DNA of 64,000 nucleotides from a virus (taxonomy: Duplodnaviria > Caudoviricetes): positions 245,535 to 309,534 of IMG/VR virus record IMGVR_UViG_3300031088_000782, one strand, 5' to 3'. A model generated the notes under the pieces. The model was not told the DNA's origin. It saw only the letters and a list, made by a program, of their open reading frames with translations, and searched no databases. Below, in pieces: positions 3,253 through 14,170 of the stretch (the stretch's first letter is position 1; each line of letters opens with the position of its first letter). Position numbers and translations under genes: made by a program.

Positions 3253-4608
3253 ATGCCAGTACGTCCAAAAGCAATATTTGTAGGGCCAGCAAAGCTTGGC
3301 GAACATTTAGAGAAATTGAGAAAAGGCTGGGACTTCGTTAGCATTGTGCCAGATATCGCAAGTCTTTGGAACGGCCTCAACAACCAGACTATTGATGACA
3401 ATGTTCAGGTAATAATAACCTTAGACGGATTCTTCAAACCAGATTCGGAAGAAGATTCATCATTTGAGCAGTTAGTTGCCATGATGTCCCCCCATTGTTT
3501 CTTCTTAATTGTGTCTTATATGCCAGAATACGAAAGCCAAATGAGATCAAGAATCAGCTCAGAGTCTCATGCTGTCGGAAATGGTGGAAATGAAGAATAC
3601 TTTTTCGTTGACCCAAAACGTCCCAACCTGACAATCGACAGAGCACTTGCAGAATATATTAAAAACACTGAAAACAAAGAAGTAGCCGCTATTCTTGATG
3701 GAAGAGAAATAGAGCAAGATCCCGCTACACAAGAACTGCAAGAAGTTCAACCAGCTCCTGTAGCCACAGATTATAACTTTGATGACATTGAAAGTGACAA
3801 GTTGGGACAGGTTGTTGCTATCACATCAAGTAAAGGTGGATCCGGCAAGTCTACTGTTGCAACAACCTTAGCAACATATTTAGCTCATTCTTCAATCAAC
3901 TCCGTTAAAGAAGGACTAGAAGAAAAGCCACTCAAAATCTGTATTCTCGACTTGGACGTTAGGGACGGTCAGATTGGATTCTTAACAGGAAACCTTCAGC
4001 CTACAGTTCTTCATATGAGATCGCATGGTATTGATCCTCAAACTCTCAGTGAAACAATCATTTACAGTGAAAGACTGAAAGTAGATTTGCTATTAGCACC
4101 TAAAAGACCAAGACTTTCAGATGATACTCCAGCTGAATTCTACTTAGAACTTATTCAATTTTTGAAACGATTCTATGATTATGTCATTTTGGATACTTCT
4201 GTGAACTATCTTGATCCATTATTGGAGAAAGTTGCTTATCCGATTGCAGATCAAATTATTTTCGTTTCAGACATTGTTGTTCATTCTGTTTATTCAATGA
4301 CACGATGGATTCAAGAGGTTACAAAACCTAAGAGTCAGCAGGGAATGGGAATAGACAAAAAGAAAATCGGTATTGTTGTCAATAAATCAATGGCGAACAT
4401 CAGCATGTCAGGCGAAAAAATCGCTAAAAGTGCACTTGGTCTCCCAGTTCTGACAGTTATACCAAACAACGCTAAACTTTTGGCACACGCAGCTAACCTT
4501 CAGTCAATGGAGCAAGTTCTGAGACATGCAGATATCAAAAACTCTATCAGGCTATTAGCGCGTCGTATCGTCGGTAAAAAATATAAACTTACTGATAACG
4601 TGTCATAA
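3253..4608 (+). CDS. CpaE/TadZ-MinD/ParA-family ATPase with N-terminal receiver-like domain
   Basis: Deviant Walker A SSKGGSGKST, ILDLDVRDG, YDYVILDTS, IGIVVNK; follows CpaB-like gene. Confidence 0.75.
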   Translation: MPVRPKAIFVGPAKLGEHLEKLRKGWDFVSIVPDIASLWNGLNNQTIDDNVQVIITLDGFFKPDSEEDSSFEQLVAMMSPHCFFLIVSYMPEYESQMRSRISSESHAVGNGGNEEYFFVDPKRPNLTIDRALAEYIKNTENKEVAAILDGREIEQDPATQELQEVQPAPVATDYNFDDIESDKLGQVVAITSSKGGSGKSTVATTLATYLAHSSINSVKEGLEEKPLKICILDLDVRDGQIGFLTGNLQPTVLHMRSHGIDPQTLSETIIYSERLKVDLLLAPKRPRLSDDTPAEFYLELIQFLKRFYDYVILDTSVNYLDPLLEKVAYPIADQIIFVSDIVVHSVYSMTRWIQEVTKPKSQQGMGIDKKKIGIVVNKSMANISMSGEKIAKSALGLPVLTVIPNNAKLLAHAANLQSMEQVLRHADIKNSIRLLARRIVGKKYKLTDNVS

Positions 4609-6305: not shown

Positions 6306-7940
6306 TCAATTGTCCATTTCATTTTCAAGCATCAAAGGAAGCATCAGAACAGGATTGATCTCAGCGTCAAAAAGATCACTGTCCAGAGCATTATGCCATT
6401 CTTGGAAGCTCGGGAAAGTTTCAATAGATAAAATATACATCATATTAAAAAATTCAACACATGATTTAAACCATTCATCACTGTTATCTTTAGACAAAAT
6501 TTTAATAAAAATATCCAAACTATTATCAATATTGCTTGCCATGCTTCCAAAAACAACATTCTTCATATTTTCTTTACTCTGATAATTTAAAATAAAATCA
6601 TCTTTAAAGCTCATATCTTTTCTATTAGAGTAGTTAACATAAGAAAAGCTAATAGTTTTGTCATCATTTATCTTCTGTTTTTTAATACTGACGAAATTAT
6701 AAAGAAAAACAAGATTAAATACATTATAAAGATCCTCAGCAGAAACACAGTCCTTCTTTCTATATATCTCTTTCAGAAATCTCACAGCTAAAAAAGAATA
6801 ATTCTCATCATGAAAATAATCAAGATCGTGCTTTTTAAAATATTTATTAAACTTGTTATAGATCTCTTTCAATTCAGAAATAACCTTCTCTTTATTTAAA
6901 TCTGCATCAAAATACATCAAAGCCCACACAGCGTGCCTAGTCCAGTCAAAATGAGAACTGTAACTACCGCGCTCAAAGAAATCAAACGCAAACATCTCCT
7001 TACTAGAAAGATAAATACTCGAATCAACATACATATGTTCAACCATTTCAATAAAACTATCAAACATATTATTATCTTCTTTATTTTCGTATGCATCTAC
7101 ACGACTACGAAACCAAACAATCTCTTCATAAGCTTTCTCATTAAAACGAGAAACGGCTTTATCCAAATCAATACGAGAAAGTTCAGAAAATGATTCACAA
7201 AACTTTAACAAAAAATTTCGTGAATAATTACTATCTGCAGGCTTAAACCCATAACCAATATAACGACTCAAACGCTCAAGAGAAGAAGTAATAAAATAAA
7301 AGCCATCTGCATTTTCTTTTGAGAGATTTGGAACAAGAAGCCGATTATTCAAATGATCATAATAATCTTTGTAATAGACACAAGAATAAGATTTTTTCGA
7401 ATCTTCTACATAATCAACAGTAAAGTTTTCGCCAACAAAATCTTTGTCAATGATTCCTTTAACCAAAGCGAACTGAGTGACAGTATAATCAAAATCTGAA
7501 AGTATAGCCTCCGGAGATCCAAAATTTTTGCGCACCAAATCAATTGTCACATTATAAAAATAATCATAGAACCCAATAGAATTTTCCGTGTCATATTTTT
7601 TCTCAAAACCAGGTCTTTCACTAAATAATTTAACAGCATCATTGAAATCCTCTTCGCTCTCAAAGAAAACATCAATATCCTTAATAGCTCTACTTGTCAA
7701 ATAATCCTTAAAAACGCCTCCAGCAATAAAACCTTTATGCCCATCAAGAATGCTCTCAGCAAAAGCACTCACAAACTTCTGCAAATCTTCTTCTTTATCA
7801 TTATCTGTTGTAGCATTATCGGTGTCGGTGTTTCGTTCTACAAGAATTTCAGAGTTATCTTCAGAAATTACTGAAGTACTGAAAGAACAATTCGCATTCA
7901 CAACAACAGAATTCACTCCATAAGACAAGATAGCCTCCAC
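6306..7940 (-). CDS. Nucleotidyltransferase, poly(A) polymerase/CCA-adding head-like, with long C-terminal extension
   Basis: FIAGGVFKD, KDIDVFF, TIDLV, ILSDFDYTVTQFA (GG...DxD and FDxT motifs). Confidence 0.65.
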   Translation of the reverse strand: MEAILSYGVNSVVVNANCSFSTSVISEDNSEILVERNTDTDNATTDNDKEEDLQKFVSAFAESILDGHKGFIAGGVFKDYLTSRAIKDIDVFFESEEDFNDAVKLFSERPGFEKKYDTENSIGFYDYFYNVTIDLVRKNFGSPEAILSDFDYTVTQFALVKGIIDKDFVGENFTVDYVEDSKKSYSCVYYKDYYDHLNNRLLVPNLSKENADGFYFITSSLERLSRYIGYGFKPADSNYSRNFLLKFCESFSELSRIDLDKAVSRFNEKAYEEIVWFRSRVDAYENKEDNNMFDSFIEMVEHMYVDSSIYLSSKEMFAFDFFERGSYSSHFDWTRHAVWALMYFDADLNKEKVISELKEIYNKFNKYFKKHDLDYFHDENYSFLAVRFLKEIYRKKDCVSAEDLYNVFNLVFLYNFVSIKKQKINDDKTISFSYVNYSNRKDMSFKDDFILNYQSKENMKNVVFGSMASNIDNSLDIFIKILSKDNSDEWFKSCVEFFNMMYILSIETFPSFQEWHNALDSDLFDAEINPVLMLPLMLENEMDN

Positions 7941-8150: not shown

Positions 8151-9875
8151 TTAACCAAGTTTTTTCAACAATTCGTTAAAACGGATAATGCTTGTGGCTT
8201 GACGGCGAGCAGCGTCTACCTCACATCTATCCTCAGAAACAGCCCTCACCAGAGCATGTTCCATTGTAATCTCACGATCTATCTGATACTGTTTGATCCC
8301 CTCAATGTCAGCATGAAGGATCATTCGTGAAACTTCTTCATCAACATTAAGAATTTCACGAACAGCAAATCTTGACTCGCCATCCTTCGACTGCAATAGA
8401 ACCTGATTAGCAAAACCACGAACATTCTCTGACAATGAACCAAGAATTCGAATCTGATCATCTCCCTGATACAAAGAACGAATACGGTTTACAGTAGCCG
8501 GGGCTGAATTAGTGTGCATAGTCGAAATAGCCAAATGGCCTGTCTCAGCAGCTCTCAACAATTCATTAACCTCAGTCTGATTCCTAACCTCACCAATCAT
8601 TATAATGTCTGGTGCCTGACGCATAGCACTCGTCAAAGCGCCAGCAAAGGTTCGGGTATCTCTACCAACCTCACGTTGAGTAATCAATGCCTTACCCTCT
8701 GTTCCGTACATGAACTCAACAGGTCTCTCAACCGTAATAATCTTACAAGCCCTGTCCATCTGAATCTTATGTATCAAAGAAGCCAAAGTGCTCGATTTTC
8801 CAGTTCCCGTTGGCCCATTCATCATGACCAAACCATTCGGCAAATCACACCAATCAATCAAATCTTGCTCAACACCCAAATCTTCAGGCATAGGAATGAT
8901 GTTACTGATAATACGGAACACCATAGCAAAATCTCCACCATTAGCCTTCAACACAGACAAACGCAAACGTCTCCCCTGATACTTTCCCTTCTTTACGACA
9001 TAAGAAGCATCCAATTCAAGATCCGTAGCAAAATCAGATTGCGCAACATGTGAAGTAATATTTGTGAAAATTCTCTGCACAATAGTAGCAGGAATAATAC
9101 CAAAATCACTCACACGTCGAATGTCACCTAAAACAGTATAAGCAATATAATCATTCGGAGAAATATGAATATCCGAAGCCTTCAAATCAATTCCAAAACC
9201 AATAATCGCATCAATATCAAACCCAGAAAACTCATCCTCAAAATCATCCTCACTCAAATCATAAGCACCAGAGAAAGAATCCTCACTCTCATCCCCATTA
9301 AAAGCAGCATCTAAAATAGAATCAACATCATCCGAAACGGGATCATCACTATCATGCTCATCAATAGTATTCAAAACATTCTCAAACGAATCAAACTGAG
9401 CAGTGTCCTCAATACTATCATCTTCATCAATGTCTAAATCAGTATGAGAATCATAATCAGAATTTTCATAACCTTCATCAAACTCTTCATCAACAGAATC
9501 GTAAGAGCGAGAACGGTAATGTGAATCATAATCATCCTCATTGCCATTCACATCAACATAAAAATCAGGAATACTATGAGCAGATTCTTCGTATTCTCCA
9601 TGCCCCTCATCTTTGACAACATACACATCCTCAACACCAGGCAAAGCATCATCCTCGATCTCATAACCAATAAGATCTTCATTCGGATTACCCTCAATCA
9701 AATCACGAGAATGCTCAAAAGTTCCAGTAGACAAATTGCTCACATCAACATCAAGAGACATCAGATCAAAACTATCCTCATACTCTTCCTCCTCATCAGA
9801 ATCATCTAACAAAGGATTCACAACATCATCCTCATCGTCCAATAAAGGATTCGAGTCATCATTCAGATCATCCAT
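8151..9875 (-). CDS. pilT: PilT/PilU-like type IV pilus ATPase with ~215-aa acidic N-terminal extension
   Basis: ASDIHI, GPTGTGKSST, AMRQAPDIIMIGEVR, AETGHLAISTMHTNSA; RBS AGGAGAG upstream. Confidence 0.8.
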   Translation of the reverse strand: MDDLNDDSNPLLDDEDDVVNPLLDDSDEEEEYEDSFDLMSLDVDVSNLSTGTFEHSRDLIEGNPNEDLIGYEIEDDALPGVEDVYVVKDEGHGEYEESAHSIPDFYVDVNGNEDDYDSHYRSRSYDSVDEEFDEGYENSDYDSHTDLDIDEDDSIEDTAQFDSFENVLNTIDEHDSDDPVSDDVDSILDAAFNGDESEDSFSGAYDLSEDDFEDEFSGFDIDAIIGFGIDLKASDIHISPNDYIAYTVLGDIRRVSDFGIIPATIVQRIFTNITSHVAQSDFATDLELDASYVVKKGKYQGRRLRLSVLKANGGDFAMVFRIISNIIPMPEDLGVEQDLIDWCDLPNGLVMMNGPTGTGKSSTLASLIHKIQMDRACKIITVERPVEFMYGTEGKALITQREVGRDTRTFAGALTSAMRQAPDIIMIGEVRNQTEVNELLRAAETGHLAISTMHTNSAPATVNRIRSLYQGDDQIRILGSLSENVRGFANQVLLQSKDGESRFAVREILNVDEEVSRMILHADIEGIKQYQIDREITMEHALVRAVSEDRCEVDAARRQATSIIRFNELLKKLG

Positions 9876-12202
9876 AAATCTCTCTCCTTAAACACACCGT
9901 CTTCAGTAATAACAGGAACGATATCAATACGCCCCTCCTGCCATAAACCAATCTCTTTAGAAATCTGCTCCAACTTACGAGCAGGGCCAATATTTTTACA
10001 CACCCAAATAACTTTCTTATACAATCTATTATCAGCACGATAAGCTCTCAAAGTTTTCTCATAAGAACCACTCGCTTTATTGTTAATCTCAATCTCCACA
10101 GCAATACTCTCCGGTGTTCCATCCTCATTTCTTGGACGAACAACAACAAGGTCAGGAACATGGTAAGCCAAACGAATATTGAAAGGCGGCATCAAAGCCC
10201 ACATGTACTCATTCCCCAAAACTTGCTCAGGGCTTGGGCCGAAATTAACACCACCAGCACGCTCCCAAGAACGAAATTGTTTCTCAATCTCAGCCAACAA
10301 TTCAGGACGATACACATCAGATTTATCAAACATCTTAATCTTTCCAAAAGCAGATTGAATCTCCAGCTCACTCACAAGCTTCTCACCAAACACCATCTCC
10401 CCCTTACCATCAACACGATTACGCACAGGAAATTCAGGAAGATTAAGAACATTCACATTAGCACCCCACAAGTTAGCAGCAGTATTATTTACCGTAAACT
10501 GATGCGGAAACATACTAAAAGTCAACTTGCTTTCGGTCACACGAGGCAAATCAAAACCAGACAAAAGCAAACCAGCCTCAGTCAAAAACCAAATCGGACG
10601 AGCACCATAAATCTTCCTATCAATCACCAAACCAACACTACGCAACTTCTTCAACCTATTATAAGAAGTCTGCACACTACAAGAAAACATACGAGCCAAC
10701 TGCGCATCAGTAGCATAACGGAACATAGCCAAAAACTGCAAAGTCTCACGATCCTTAGCATTGAAAGAAGAACGAGAACCACGCTTCAAACCATCAGCAC
10801 CACGCAAAGCCTGCTCATACAAAACAACCCTCGCCTTACGATCAGCCTCACTCTCACCCAACCCATCAGAGTTAGAACGTAAAGAAGAAACCAAAGAATC
10901 ATCACTCAAAACAGAAGACTTACTACCGCCTAGATTTTTGAAAAACTCCAACTCCGCAACATTCACACGACCATCATTAGACAAATAACGATAACGCTCC
11001 CGAGAACCAGAACCACTCTTTTTCACACCCTTATCAACTGCAGACGAAGAACCTTTTGTAACAGCATCCGAATCTTTCGCAACACTTTCAGAACCTTCAG
11101 AAACATCACTAACAGAATCAGAAATAGAATCCACAACCGAATCTGAACTACCAGAAACTATACGACCAGAGTCATCAACAACAACCTCACGAACAGGCTT
11201 CCTCTTAAAATCAGAATCAATAGCACGAGGTCCACGCTTCCCCTGCTTCTTCTTTTTAGAAGCCGCACCACGCTTCTTCGAACGCTCACGAGAATCAACA
11301 ATAGTCTCATAAAAAGAACCCAAACGATCCGCATCCCCATCAGAAACCAAAGACTTAAACTCAGCACCAGACACAACAGAGTCACGAACAGACTCAACAG
11401 AATCAATAGAAACTTCATCTGTATTGCCTGACTCACTATTAGACAATCTTTCAACAGCCCCAACAGAATTAACTGCACCAGACACATAATCTTCATCCTC
11501 CTCATCAACAAAAGGATTAAAAGAATCAGAAACAGAATCACTTGCCGGAATACCAGAAGACTCTTTTACACTCTTTGTAGAAACATTATCAAAACCGACA
11601 AAAGTTTCAGAATCATCATCCTCGCTACCATCAACAAAAGATTCCCTATCTTGAATCCCACGAGAAATAGCACCTACATCAATAATAAAATCAGAAGAAC
11701 CAGAACTGGAATTTAAAACAGAATCATCATCCTCCCCCACAAATTCATCAAAGAATTCATCATCAAAAGAATCAAACGAATCATCAACTCCATCAGAAAA
11801 ATCTTCAACAGAATCGGTCAAATCAGAATCAGCAACAGAATTAAAGTCAACACTGGAACCCTCAGAAATTTCATCCTCCTCATCAACAAAAGGATTAAAG
11901 GAATCAGAATCAACACCTGAACTATTTGAGACAACAACATCTTTTATAGAATCACCAATAGAAGAATCATTTACTGAAACACTTGTAGAAGACTTTTCAA
12001 TAGAATCCTCAACCGGAGAAACATCATCAAATTTAATAGGACTAAACTTAAACTTCTTCACAGGAGAAACAGAACTACTATCAATAATAGAATCTTTATC
12101 ATAATTCTCAACATCACTAGTATCTGAAACGACAACAGATTCATCTACTATACTATCATCACTATCAGAAGAACCAAAATTAGGTTTTTTAAACTCAACC
12201 AT
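9863..12202 (-). CDS. Replication-relaxation (Replic_Relax) family protein with long Ser/Asp-rich N-terminus
   Basis: C-terminal wHTH (ETLQFLAMFRYAT..QLARMF...RLKKL...GLV...WFLTEAG), PHQF, PDLVV, IAVEIE; start chosen at MVEFKKPNF (ATG 12202). Confidence 0.7.
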   Translation of the reverse strand: MVEFKKPNFGSSDSDDSIVDESVVVSDTSDVENYDKDSIIDSSSVSPVKKFKFSPIKFDDVSPVEDSIEKSSTSVSVNDSSIGDSIKDVVVSNSSGVDSDSFNPFVDEEDEISEGSSVDFNSVADSDLTDSVEDFSDGVDDSFDSFDDEFFDEFVGEDDDSVLNSSSGSSDFIIDVGAISRGIQDRESFVDGSEDDDSETFVGFDNVSTKSVKESSGIPASDSVSDSFNPFVDEEDEDYVSGAVNSVGAVERLSNSESGNTDEVSIDSVESVRDSVVSGAEFKSLVSDGDADRLGSFYETIVDSRERSKKRGAASKKKKQGKRGPRAIDSDFKRKPVREVVVDDSGRIVSGSSDSVVDSISDSVSDVSEGSESVAKDSDAVTKGSSSAVDKGVKKSGSGSRERYRYLSNDGRVNVAELEFFKNLGGSKSSVLSDDSLVSSLRSNSDGLGESEADRKARVVLYEQALRGADGLKRGSRSSFNAKDRETLQFLAMFRYATDAQLARMFSCSVQTSYNRLKKLRSVGLVIDRKIYGARPIWFLTEAGLLLSGFDLPRVTESKLTFSMFPHQFTVNNTAANLWGANVNVLNLPEFPVRNRVDGKGEMVFGEKLVSELEIQSAFGKIKMFDKSDVYRPELLAEIEKQFRSWERAGGVNFGPSPEQVLGNEYMWALMPPFNIRLAYHVPDLVVVRPRNEDGTPESIAVEIEINNKASGSYEKTLRAYRADNRLYKKVIWVCKNIGPARKLEQISKEIGLWQEGRIDIVPVITEDGVFKERDLWMI
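11493..11899. repeat. Two identical 29-bp direct repeats (11493-11521, 11871-11899) encoding FNPFVDEED
   Basis: tcatcctcctcatcaacaaaaggattaaa read at both positions. Confidence 0.9.
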
Positions 12203-12565
12203 CAACAAACACCACCAAACAACATCAAAGGAACAATACATTACATATAAGCAAACATAACAAAACACTCATAATAAGACACAAATAAATATCAAGGACA
12301 AGAAAAAATTAAAAATAAGACCATTTAAAGAAGCTTTAAAAACCCTTACCTAAGCACAAAAAGATAAAAACAATCCCCTTTAACATAATAAAACGCCAAG
12401 AGAAACCCGCAAATAACGAAAAAGAAGAAAAAGTAACATGAAGTTACTATTAACAACAAACCATCCTCTACTGTTATTAGCTTTATATACATAGGTATAA
12501 AGAAAGCCTTCAAAAACCCCGTAGCCTAACCATGCCATAGGAACGTGGGTCGTGGTGTCACCCTT

Positions 12566-12817
12566 GTCCGCTACGCGGACGCAACTATTGTTCAAGCGCA
12601 GGGCGCTTTCTCAGATAGTTGCCCGAACGCCTGGGGGCGTCCGGAGGGTGCCAGTTTGTCGCTGACGCGCCAAACCTGATACGGCAATGCTGACGCATCA
12701 CCGTATCAGCCACTCGGTCGGGGAGTGGAGTGTTGTTTGTGAGTGCGTTGTTACTTACGTTCACAAACTTGCGGTTCGGGTTTGATAAATGTTGCAAAAG
12801 GGTTTGCTAAACATTTG
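12566..12817. other. Cluster of GC-rich hairpins in non-coding island
   Basis: GTCCGC-tac-GCGGAC (12566-80); CTGATACGG..ATGC-tgac-GCAT..CCGTATCAG (12676-12709); GTTTGTGA/TCACAAAC (12735-68); AAATGTT/AACATTT (~12788-12817). Confidence 0.7.
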
Positions 12818-13359
12818 AGAAAGGAGACAAGGTAGAAGGTCCGAGGAAAGAGAAGAGTTGAAGAAAGAACGTAGGTGTGCGCTACACTGTTAAGGTAGCG
12901 GTTCAAAAGTCAGGACAGGTCAGGGTCATGGGTGTGCGGAACACTACGCCACAACATAGGGTTAAGAAAAGGAATGGGTGTGCGCTACACAGCAAAGGCA
13001 AGGGTTGGGGGTTGTAAGTGTGCGGAACACTCCAACAGCGGTAGCGGAACGAATGGCGCGTCAGCGACAGGCGTGACATGAACGTGCCGCGTCAGCGGGA
13101 CGTTCAGCGAAAAGCGCGTCAGCGGTTTGAGTCGGCTTGGTGGGGAGGGGAAGTTGAGGAACGTGGGTGTGCGAAACACTGTGGTTAGGTCACGATGAAA
13201 ACGAAACGTGAGTGGAACGGAAAGCACCGCGTCAGCGGGGATTGTAGTGGAACGTGAGTGTAGTTGGAATGGGACTTGGTTGCAGTCACCGTGAAAAGCT
13301 GGGAACGGATCATGCTCAGGTTATAGTCACCGGGAATGGTTGAGGGGTGAGCGTCAGCG
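12660..13359. repeat. GCGTCAGC(G) motif: five + copies and two inverted copies
   Basis: + at 13058, 13089, 13116, 13229, 13351; inverted (GCTGACGC) at 12661 and 12689. Confidence 0.85.
12875..13179 (+). repeat. Five copies of GTGTGCG(CT/GA/AA)ACAC, iteron/operator-like
   Basis: At 12875, 12932, 12978, 13018, 13167; dyad GTGT-N5-ACAC. Confidence 0.85.
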
Positions 13360-13646
13360 AACTTGTGTTTGCGAAGTGTTGGTCAAGTGGTTTGTGAATG
13401 GTGGGTATGGTTAGTGTGGTGGTTGGGTTCGGGTGTTTGTTGAGTGTTCGTGTTGGGTGTGGGGAAAGTGTGAAAAAATTGTTGGGAAAATTTGTTGCTG
13501 AAATGTTAGGTTGTATTTCTTTTTTTTTATTTTTTATTTTTCTTTTTTGTCAAGGGTTTTGTGGGGTTGCTGTTTTTGGTGGTTTGGGGTAGACTGGTGT
13601 TGGTGCTTGTTTTTAGTTGGTCTATTTTTTGGAGTTGTTTGTTGTG

Positions 13647-13836
13647 ATGTTTCGTAAATATTTTGGTGAACATAATTTTGTAAATGATTCAAATGATGTT
13701 GGAGCCTGGTGAGGTTGTGTCGTTGCGTGTTGGTTCTCGTCCTTTGGATGTGGATCGTTATTATGGTGGTGAGTTTGGTTTTGAAGTTGAGGTTGAGCCT
13801 GGCAGTGAGATGACTGTTGTGCGTTTTCCTGATTAA
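13647..13836 (+). pseudogene. Frameshifted paralog of 35693..35905
   Basis: MFRKYFGEHNFVNDSNDV in one frame, LEPGEVVSLRVGSRPLDVDRYYGGEFGFEVEV in another; 14 nt missing relative to paralog. Confidence 0.7.
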
Positions 13837-13858
13837 TTTCTTATGAGAGGTTGTTTTT

Positions 13859-14170
13859 ATGTTGAGTGATAAGTTTGAGAGTAATGTCGTTAGTGTTGGT
13901 TTGCCTGTTGAATATTGGGTTGATGTTGTGGATGAAATTTTTAGGAATTATTCGCCTACTACAACTATTGCTGGTAAGGATGATTATAAGTTTCGGGATA
14001 CTGTGTTTTATGATATGAATGATTTTTATACTTATTTATTGTTGAATTTTTTCGGTGAGGTAGATCTTTTGCATCCTGGTGAGGTTAATCTTGTTGAGTT
14101 TATCAATGGTGATTCGAGAACTTTGGGTGAGATTATTGAATATTGGGACTCTGTTAAGAGGGTTATTTAG
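13859..14170 (+). CDS. hypothetical protein
   Basis: 103 aa ORF, RBS GAGAGG, followed by IR. Confidence 0.65.
   Translation: MLSDKFESNVVSVGLPVEYWVDVVDEIFRNYSPTTTIAGKDDYKFRDTVFYDMNDFYTYLLLNFFGEVDLLHPGEVNLVEFINGDSRTLGEIIEYWDSVKRVI

Follow-up and report, generated by a model that had tools for sequence, protein, structure and literature searches.

What is the function of a GC-rich island that encodes no credible protein and lies upstream of a relaxase-like gene in a giant, AT-rich uncultivated element? We addressed this question for the IMG/VR record IMGVR_UViG_3300031088_000782 (309,534 bp, class provirus; G000 below), the last 64 kb of which form the window analyzed here. The island occupies positions 12540-13400 of the window and had been proposed, from the letters alone, as an origin of vegetative replication (oriV) or of transfer (oriT) carrying binding sites for the product of the adjacent gene (the original prediction). 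That product, hereafter the nuclease, is also recorded on a 681,645-bp contig, so the 309,534-bp record was probably cut out of a larger element. We give about an even chance to the reading that the island is a cis-acting DNA-processing origin, namely an oriT-type region at which the nuclease, which resembles relaxases of the MOBC class, would assemble a relaxosome and nick; by analogy with the oriT of ICEBs1, it may start nick-primed replication too.

The composition of the island sets it apart from the rest of the record. Its GC content is 54%, compared with 31-37% in the flanks and ~35% in the record overall, and it is the only stretch in the entire record where GC exceeds 0.5 over more than 400 bp. 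Two motifs were found at exactly the positions originally given for them. The first, GTGTGCGnnACAC (M1), occurs on the + strand at 12875, 12932, 12978, 13018 and 13167, with no other copy in the record on either strand. The second, GCGTCAGCG (M2), occurs on the + strand at 13058, 13089, 13116, 13229 and 13351, with no other + copy in the record, and in inverted form (GCTGACGC) at 12661 and 12689, with three more copies in the remaining 245 kb. None of 5000 dinucleotide-preserving shuffles of the island attained the observed count of either motif (means of 0.002 for M1 and 0.008 for M2), and within the record both motif families are all but restricted to the island. The non-coding status of the island is likewise supported, since no stop-free frame is common to three alignable relatives and 24 of 27 insertions and deletions (indels) relative to the lineage L013 are not multiples of three. 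One open reading frame (ORF) of 142 amino acids (aa) has been called inside the island on the G-rich strand of an 88%-identity lineage (L013:3559-3987 and L103:88-516); it is not conserved in the window or in L012 and is probably spurious. A tRNA search found none, and blastn searches of PLSDB plasmids and INPHARED phages with the island as query returned nothing. The 16-mer TGTCGCTGACGCGCCA had 31 single matches in viral contigs, none of them with the other motifs, which we regard as chance matches.

We then turned to ~80 collected loci that encode relatives of the nuclease. The island could be aligned in three lineages (the window, L012 and L013/L103), in which the motifs are invariant and the spacers have diverged. 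Beyond these, a GC-rich, repeat-bearing island upstream of the homologous gene is retained down to ~31-36% protein identity, which upholds the expectation of conservation in related elements. The core of M1, GTGTGCG, usually followed four to five bases on by AC(T)G, recurs in 3-8 copies at each of 16 loci (protein identity 44-97%, GC content 38-61%), exclusively on the non-gene strand and 300-1300 nt upstream of the homologous gene, while four further loci carry 5-10 copies of the variant GTGTGACAC in place of GTGTGCG. The M1 boxes of the window are 13-16 bp long, spread over ~300 bp and situated 166-460 nt away from the hairpins nearest the gene. Because M1 has no stable fold (Table 1), it is probably a duplex protein-binding box. 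Its spacing is irregular in relatives also, and the window has no tandem, regularly phased iterons. The GTGTGCG and GTGTGACAC clades differ in the recognition helix of their nucleases, but this apparent covariation of helix and box type is confounded with phylogeny and was set aside. Elsewhere in the family, a 437-kb relative with 45% protein identity has six to eight 22-bp tandem repeats (TTTTAAAGTTTGTnAnGC...) between its GC-rich box island and the gene (L003:4003-4200); these are iteron-like in the classical sense, and the window lacks them.

The second motif proved to be of a different nature. M2 had been taken for an iteron-like site, but it is the tip of a hairpin with a c-GNCA-g tetraloop, the apex of stems that covary. 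Six of the seven copies in the window fold as DNA, with a GTCA or TGAC tetraloop closed by a C:G pair, and two of these hairpins are strong. One is the originally predicted hairpin CTGATACGG..ATGC-TGAC-GCAT..CCGTATCAG at 12676-12709, which indeed folds as single-stranded DNA (ssDNA; -11.6 kcal/mol, z -5.1); the other is the strongest of the distal hairpins, at 13079-13106 (-13.9 kcal/mol, z -5.6). In the two gene-proximal hairpins, 96% of cells in the alignment pair (of the three unpaired cells, two are artefacts of how a gap was placed in the window row), and both sides have changed in 9 of 20 pairs, compared with at most 2 in slid controls. In the outer stem of proximal hairpin 2, 6 of 9 pairs are altered on both sides among relatives.

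Hairpins of the same class are found in lineages that can no longer be aligned at the DNA level. Across ten lineages we counted 43 c-GNNA-g hairpins, compared with 1.3 expected from shuffles, and in all ten lineages the loops on the gene strand are gene-proximal and those on the other strand distal, arranged around the M1 array. A 6-of-7 stem filter leaves only six c-GNNA-g hairpins in the whole 309-kb record, three of which belong to the island. The loop is GNCA in 33 of the 43 hairpins and GNRA in only 6, a distribution that fits the DNA class d(cGNNAg) rather than RNA GNRA loops. This class is described as an exceptionally stable type of DNA tetraloop (Nakano, Moody, Liang and Bevilacqua 2002, as summarized in the citing text of PMC10085684). 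The island loops share its C:G closing pair, its G at position 1, its A at position 4 and its free position 2, and depart from it in carrying C at position 3 in most cases, a preference that exceeds what stability would need and suggests that a protein may read the loop. The covarying stems, the GNCA loops, the change of strand across the array and the promoter-like elements, which are outside the island and point away from it, argue for hairpins that would act in DNA, either extruded or single-stranded, and not as structured RNA.

The conserved link is that between the island and the nuclease gene. Database copies of the protein are called from MVEFKKPN (779 aa), and 12202-12268 is a hydrophobic extension started by GTG; by comparison with these copies the gene probably starts at 12202 and not at 12268, in which case the intergenic region begins at 12203. 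There are at least 259 metagenomic homologues, on contigs of up to 828 kb, none with a precomputed Pfam domain. The conserved part consists of the C-terminal 330 residues, modelled with a predicted local distance difference test (pLDDT) score of 89-90 and preceded by an acidic, Ser-rich N-terminus of ~450 aa, whose length differs greatly between family members (protein sizes 490-1044 aa). It comprises a winged helix-turn-helix (HTH) N-terminal to a catalytic domain. The winged helix (~residues 500-575) is MarR-like, with profile matches to MarR/ZitR chains and, for residues 31-105 of the AF2 model (pLDDT 89), structural matches to the MarR family at Z 8-9 and a root-mean-square deviation of 2-3 A. 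The catalytic domain (residues 577-801, pLDDT 90) has a PD-(D/E)xK, or restriction-endonuclease, fold: most of the top 50 hits in a VIA search of the domain model were restriction-fold nucleases (Z 5-7, moderate alone), and the AFDB clusters matched were 'Restriction endonuclease' (E 4e-8, template modeling (TM) score 0.74) and two 'Replication-relaxation' entries (E 1e-5). Full-length MUS81 matches in whole-model fold searches, in which the winged helix dominated, had TM below 0.2 and were not relied on.

Within the catalytic domain, none of the residues D706, E725, E727 and K731 varies among 36 sequences that reach down to 34% identity. A DEE motif is stated for MOBC relaxases (PMC6736028), and by motif the D-E-E-K set would supply the acidic metal-binding site of that class, its members being candidate equivalents of the TraX residues of plasmid pAD1. 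The Pfam family Replic_Relax (PF13814) represents the MOBC relaxase superfamily (PMC5357655) and belongs to the PD-(D/E)xK superfamily (PMC3424549); weak matches to it were obtained for 15 of 36 family members (best E 3.4e-5). Taken together, the winged helix, the restriction fold and the D-E-E-K set identify the nuclease family as a distant MOBC-like clade outside the formal Pfam threshold. The earlier label of Replic_Relax gene therefore stands with regard to the two domains and falls short of the gathering score.

The best-matching known system comes from Enterococcus faecalis, whose plasmid pAD1 has an oriT served by the MOBC relaxase TraX. According to a review, a winged HTH lies at the N-terminus of TraX, and the protein binds a set of five direct repeats located 70-120 bp from nic (PMC12857230). 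In both systems, by the accounts in PMC12857230 and PMC6736028, a winged HTH precedes a restriction-endonuclease-type domain that bears a D-E-E metal motif, the nic region is separated from a binding site of five direct repeats, and this site adjoins the relaxase gene within a Gram-positive-type conjugation system. They differ in that the nuclease here fails to reach the Replic_Relax threshold of Pfam, is not matched by tblastn in PLSDB plasmids and carries the long acidic, disordered N-terminus (~450 aa), in that the boxes here are 13-16 bp long and cover ~300 bp of a replicon of 250-800 kb, and in that the array here is flanked by multiple opposite-strand c-GNCA-g hairpins, a feature not reported for pAD1 in the texts consulted. 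Judged by sequence, the island thus has the apparent form of a MOBC-type binding site, with several direct repeats near the gene and apart from the presumptive nic region, and this box-array layout is kept in 16 loci. Genes for type IV secretion system (T4SS) and coupling ATPases co-occur with it: to the left of the island are transfer-type genes for TcpE, a VirB4-like AAA_10 ATPase, CpaB- and CpaE-like proteins and a T2SSE ATPase, and an FtsK_SpoIIIE ATPase is encoded at 202 kb of the record. Pfam models for MobT, MobP, MobV and MobQ gave nothing above threshold in the record. The oriT-type reading follows from this setting, in which boxes and a hairpin region adjoin a winged-helix/restriction-fold nuclease within a conjugation module, as in pAD1.

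From motif uniqueness, conservation, covariation and protein folds we infer a possible course of events, including binding, cleavage, strand choice and the process served. The MarR-like winged helix would bind the five co-oriented GTGTGCGnnACAC boxes, much as pAD1 TraX binds five direct repeats away from nic, and the resulting nucleoprotein array could aid extrusion or melting of the flanking DNA. The PD-(D/E)xK domain would then cleave a single strand, either at the gene-proximal hairpins (12654-12709) or next to them. Once a strand is displaced, the distal, opposite-strand c-GNCA-g hairpins (13050-13245) would probably function on that single strand, serving for instance as single-strand origin or single-strand initiation (sso/ssi-type) priming signals or as recircularization signals. 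Strand displacement from the island would serve conjugative transfer via Tcp/VirB4/FtsK-type machinery and could also serve nick-primed unidirectional replication. The oriT of ICEBs1, processed by NicK, reportedly combines the two, using one nick site for transfer and for unidirectional rolling-circle replication. In ICEBs1, genes are co-oriented with strand displacement, and synthesis of the complementary strand is primed from hairpin signals on the displaced one. The proposal for the island is similar in its single nick site for transfer and replication, its co-oriented genes and its displaced-strand hairpins; it differs in that NicK is a Rep_trans (MOBT) enzyme, none of which was found in the record by Pfam model, and that ICEBs1 measures ~20 kb. 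We know of no box array flanked by divergent hairpins described for ICEBs1. More tentatively, the island could exemplify a type of origin not described before and common to a large family of uncultivated elements of 250-800 kb, in which a MOBC-like enzyme seated on a GTGTG-type box array acts on opposite-strand d(cGNCAg) hairpins and so starts both transfer and the essentially unidirectional replication of a co-oriented genome.

Several points weigh against an oriT-type function. The nuclease matches PF13814 with 19.1-22.1 bits, compared with a cut-off of 25.3, and only over profile positions 1-70, so that the match covers just the winged-helix part of the protein. With tblastn, the conserved winged-helix/nuclease domain had no match in 72,556 PLSDB plasmids or 50,697 INPHARED phages, and no characterized relative therefore anchors its function. 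Seven hairpin copies exceed the need of a single nic site, another relaxase or origin could lie outside the 309-kb record, which was itself probably cut from the 681-kb contig, and the anatomy of the island fits a replication origin too. In GTDB (185,579 species genomes), only two weak loci of the domain were found, although hundreds of metagenomic copies exist; a literature search on the element family returned nothing relevant.

Strand bias invites a reading of the island as a replication origin. In G000 (~85%, on the + strand) and in the relatives G001 (L106-L123, 344.9 kb) and G003 (L124-L136, 247.8 kb), 85-87% of long-ORF bases are on one strand, GC skew tracks gene orientation throughout, and a single short block of opposite orientation holds the nuclease and ATPase genes. 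In G000 and G001, skew and orientation switch at the island. In circular G003 they do not: there the island, still accompanied by the nuclease gene, is ~10 kb inside the inverted block and away from the switch. None of the three has a V-shaped cumulative skew curve. We therefore rejected the sharp skew inversion as evidence of a bidirectional origin: it is real, but it follows gene orientation and is misplaced relative to the island in G003. Circular assembly of G003 is indicated by a 55-nt direct terminal overlap (L124:1-55 and the end of L136). In G001, an apparent inverted terminal repeat (L106:1-55 and the end of L123) is likewise exactly 55 nt, the assembler k-mer size, and is more plausibly a product of assembly than a telomere.

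These observations bear on the idea that the island is an oriV, with M1 boxes as iterons for the neighboring protein, acting as Rep, or for another initiator, hairpins as primosome or primase sites on both lagging-strand templates, and A- and T-tracts that unwind. The opposite-strand hairpins on either side of the boxes, each on the lagging-strand template of an outward fork, would suit this arrangement, as would the T-tract at 13517-13550 and the A-rich tract at 12300-12320 on the two sides of the island and the divergence of orientation and skew in G000 and G001. Pfam models for DnaA and Rep_3 yielded no initiator in the record, itself a fragment of a longer contig (no Rep_3; DnaA at only 12 bits), and proteins with a reported part in plasmid replication belong to the Replic_Relax family (PMC3424549). 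We nevertheless judge an oriV unlikely, since the boxes are irregularly spaced (40-149 nt), neither tandem nor helically phased, no DnaA-box-like 9-mers were found in 12000-14000, the skew behaves as described above, and the partner gene encodes a nuclease domain and is located in a transfer module. The IncQ (RSF1010) oriV has tandem 20-22-mer iterons and, together on one side of them, the hairpins ssiA and ssiB on opposite strands. Initiator direct repeats combined with two opposite-oriented single-strand initiation hairpins, for strand-displacement synthesis both ways, are the common ground with the island, whose hairpins by contrast flank the boxes, whose partner protein is a nuclease and for which no RepC, RepA or RepB' counterpart was identified. 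What stands of the original proposal of an origin is a conserved, non-coding, cis-acting DNA element tied to a Replic_Relax-like gene; the iteron role of M2 does not.

The remaining explanations assign the island no strand initiation at all or a different partner. If it were only a transcriptional control region, M1 would provide operators for an autoregulating MarR-like domain at divergent promoters and the hairpins would be incidental or regulatory; the DNA-binding domain, the GTGT..ACAC dyad of the box, which recalls dimeric operators, and the position of the island between a TGATATT box (12288, -) and TTGCTG-17-TAGACT (13567-13595, +) are in keeping with this. It is distinctly unlikely, as five to ten boxes over 300-900 bp, located 300-1300 nt from the start codon, are too many for an operator, the conserved loops on covarying stems indicate a single-stranded or extruded structure and not a duplex operator, and the protein keeps an invariant set of nuclease active-site residues. 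Short, asymmetric, co-oriented repeats in irregular arrays are also characteristic of the Streptomyces clt/TRS repeats bound by TraB. Since M1 boxes are co-oriented, asymmetric 8-mers in an irregular array, they could be a clt/TRS-like loading site for an FtsK/TcpA-type coupling ATPase, or else a ParA-type centromere for segregation, and the record does contain the FtsK_SpoIIIE gene as well as a ParA/CpaE-like gene (3253-4608). This seems quite improbable to us, given that the array always adjoins the nuclease gene rather than the FtsK-like gene ~56 kb away, that copies of the box elsewhere in the genome number ~10 on + and 6 on -, close to expectation and with no polar enrichment, and that the ParA-like gene is part of a Tad block. 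Transcription into a structured RNA, which could form a long leader to the nuclease gene or a non-coding RNA whose GNNA-capped hairpins are nut-like or bind protein, would account for a GC-rich island within AT-rich DNA, for RNA folds with z values of -5.7 (- strand) and -2.4 (+ strand), and for the covarying stems, which are equally compatible with RNA. We consider it very improbable, because Rfam 15 gave no match at gathering across the window (for 12200-14000 only one at chance level, E 0.79, with 16 bits compared with a gathering cut-off of 70), the loops are mostly GNCA and not GNRA, their change of strand from proximal to distal prevents one transcript from carrying all of them in the same sense, the promoter-like elements outside the island are directed away from it, and the M1 boxes are conserved in sequence yet unstructured.

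The surroundings of the oriT-type candidate are summarized in Table 1. If the TGATATT box is a promoter, the island would be upstream of the transcript. To the right of the island, a long run of small + strand genes begins beyond the promoter-like TTGCTG-17-TAGACT site. When 20 downstream ORFs were compared with Pfam, the ten nearest the island all lacked a match above the curated cut-off, and no recognizable anti-defence, ssb or psiB gene of the kind found in leading regions was present among the 20. The 280-bp stretch at 13401-13683, between the island and the first promoter-like site, is almost devoid of C, and several of its blocks, such as GTTGAGTGTTCGTGTTGGG at 13439, do not vary among three relatives. 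Downstream of the ATPase gene, a 544-aa gene (6306-7940, -) has no Pfam match, while its counterparts in L012, L013 and L103 carry a precomputed PF26128 (Gad2) assignment.

Table 1 Features in and around the GC-rich island, in window coordinates
Feature	Position	Strand	Remarks
T2SSE-family (PilT/VirB11-type) ATPase gene	8151..9875	-	Overlaps the nuclease stop by 13 nt; syntenic in all close relatives
MOBC/Replic_Relax-like (nuclease) gene	9863..12268, probable start 12202	-	801-codon ORF
TGATATT box, candidate promoter element	12288..12294	-	~90 nt upstream of the probable start; invariant in three alignable relatives
Two invariant blocks, AGAAACCCGCAAATAACGAAAA (12401) and AGCCTTCAAAAACCCCGTAGCC (12505)	12401..12526		Between gene and island
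Gene-proximal cluster of six stem-loops	about 12530..12730		ssDNA fold -54.8 kcal/mol, z -5.5; blocks kept in L012 and L013
GC-rich non-coding island, whole cis element	12540..13400		54% GC, motifs, shuffles, indels
Proximal hairpin 1, GTTTG-T-CGC/TGAC/GCG-C-CAAAC	12654..12675	-	c-GTCA-g on the gene strand; stem CTTATG/CATAAG in L013
Proximal hairpin 2	12676..12709	-	9-bp outer stem, 2x2 internal loop, ATGC/GCAT inner stem, TGAC loop
Five M1 boxes, (G)GTGTGCGnnACAC	12875..13179	+	Spacings 57, 46, 40 and 149 nt; no stable hairpin, z 0.06
Four distal c-GTCA-g tetraloop hairpins	13050..13245	+	Loops at 13061, 13092, 13119 and 13232
Fifth GCGTCAGCG copy	13351..13359	+	No stable stem, z -0.5; GCGTTAGCG in L013
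Extremely G/T-rich flank, GC skew +0.76	13401..13683	+	Conserved block 13439, T-tract 13517-13550

An origin beside a relaxase-like gene is an expected kind of feature. What is new is the conserved box array flanked by opposite-oriented c-GNCA-g DNA hairpins, together with the tie between this architecture and a deep MOBC-like clade confined to giant uncultivated elements. To our knowledge, MOBC is the least understood class of relaxases. TraX binds far from nic, no covalent DNA intermediate has been seen, and recruitment and religation are unexplained, according to one review (PMC12857230). The family described here supplies candidate substrates that can be synthesized, namely the conserved box and a c-GNCA-g hairpin that is likewise conserved but free in its stems, and because these recur across lineages that are no longer alignable at the DNA level, the rules of binding and cleavage become directly testable. 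Our analysis also corrects the tempting reading of a sharp skew inversion as a bidirectional origin, and it identifies the island as the probable start point of DNA processing in a group of giant, uncultivated, virion-less elements.

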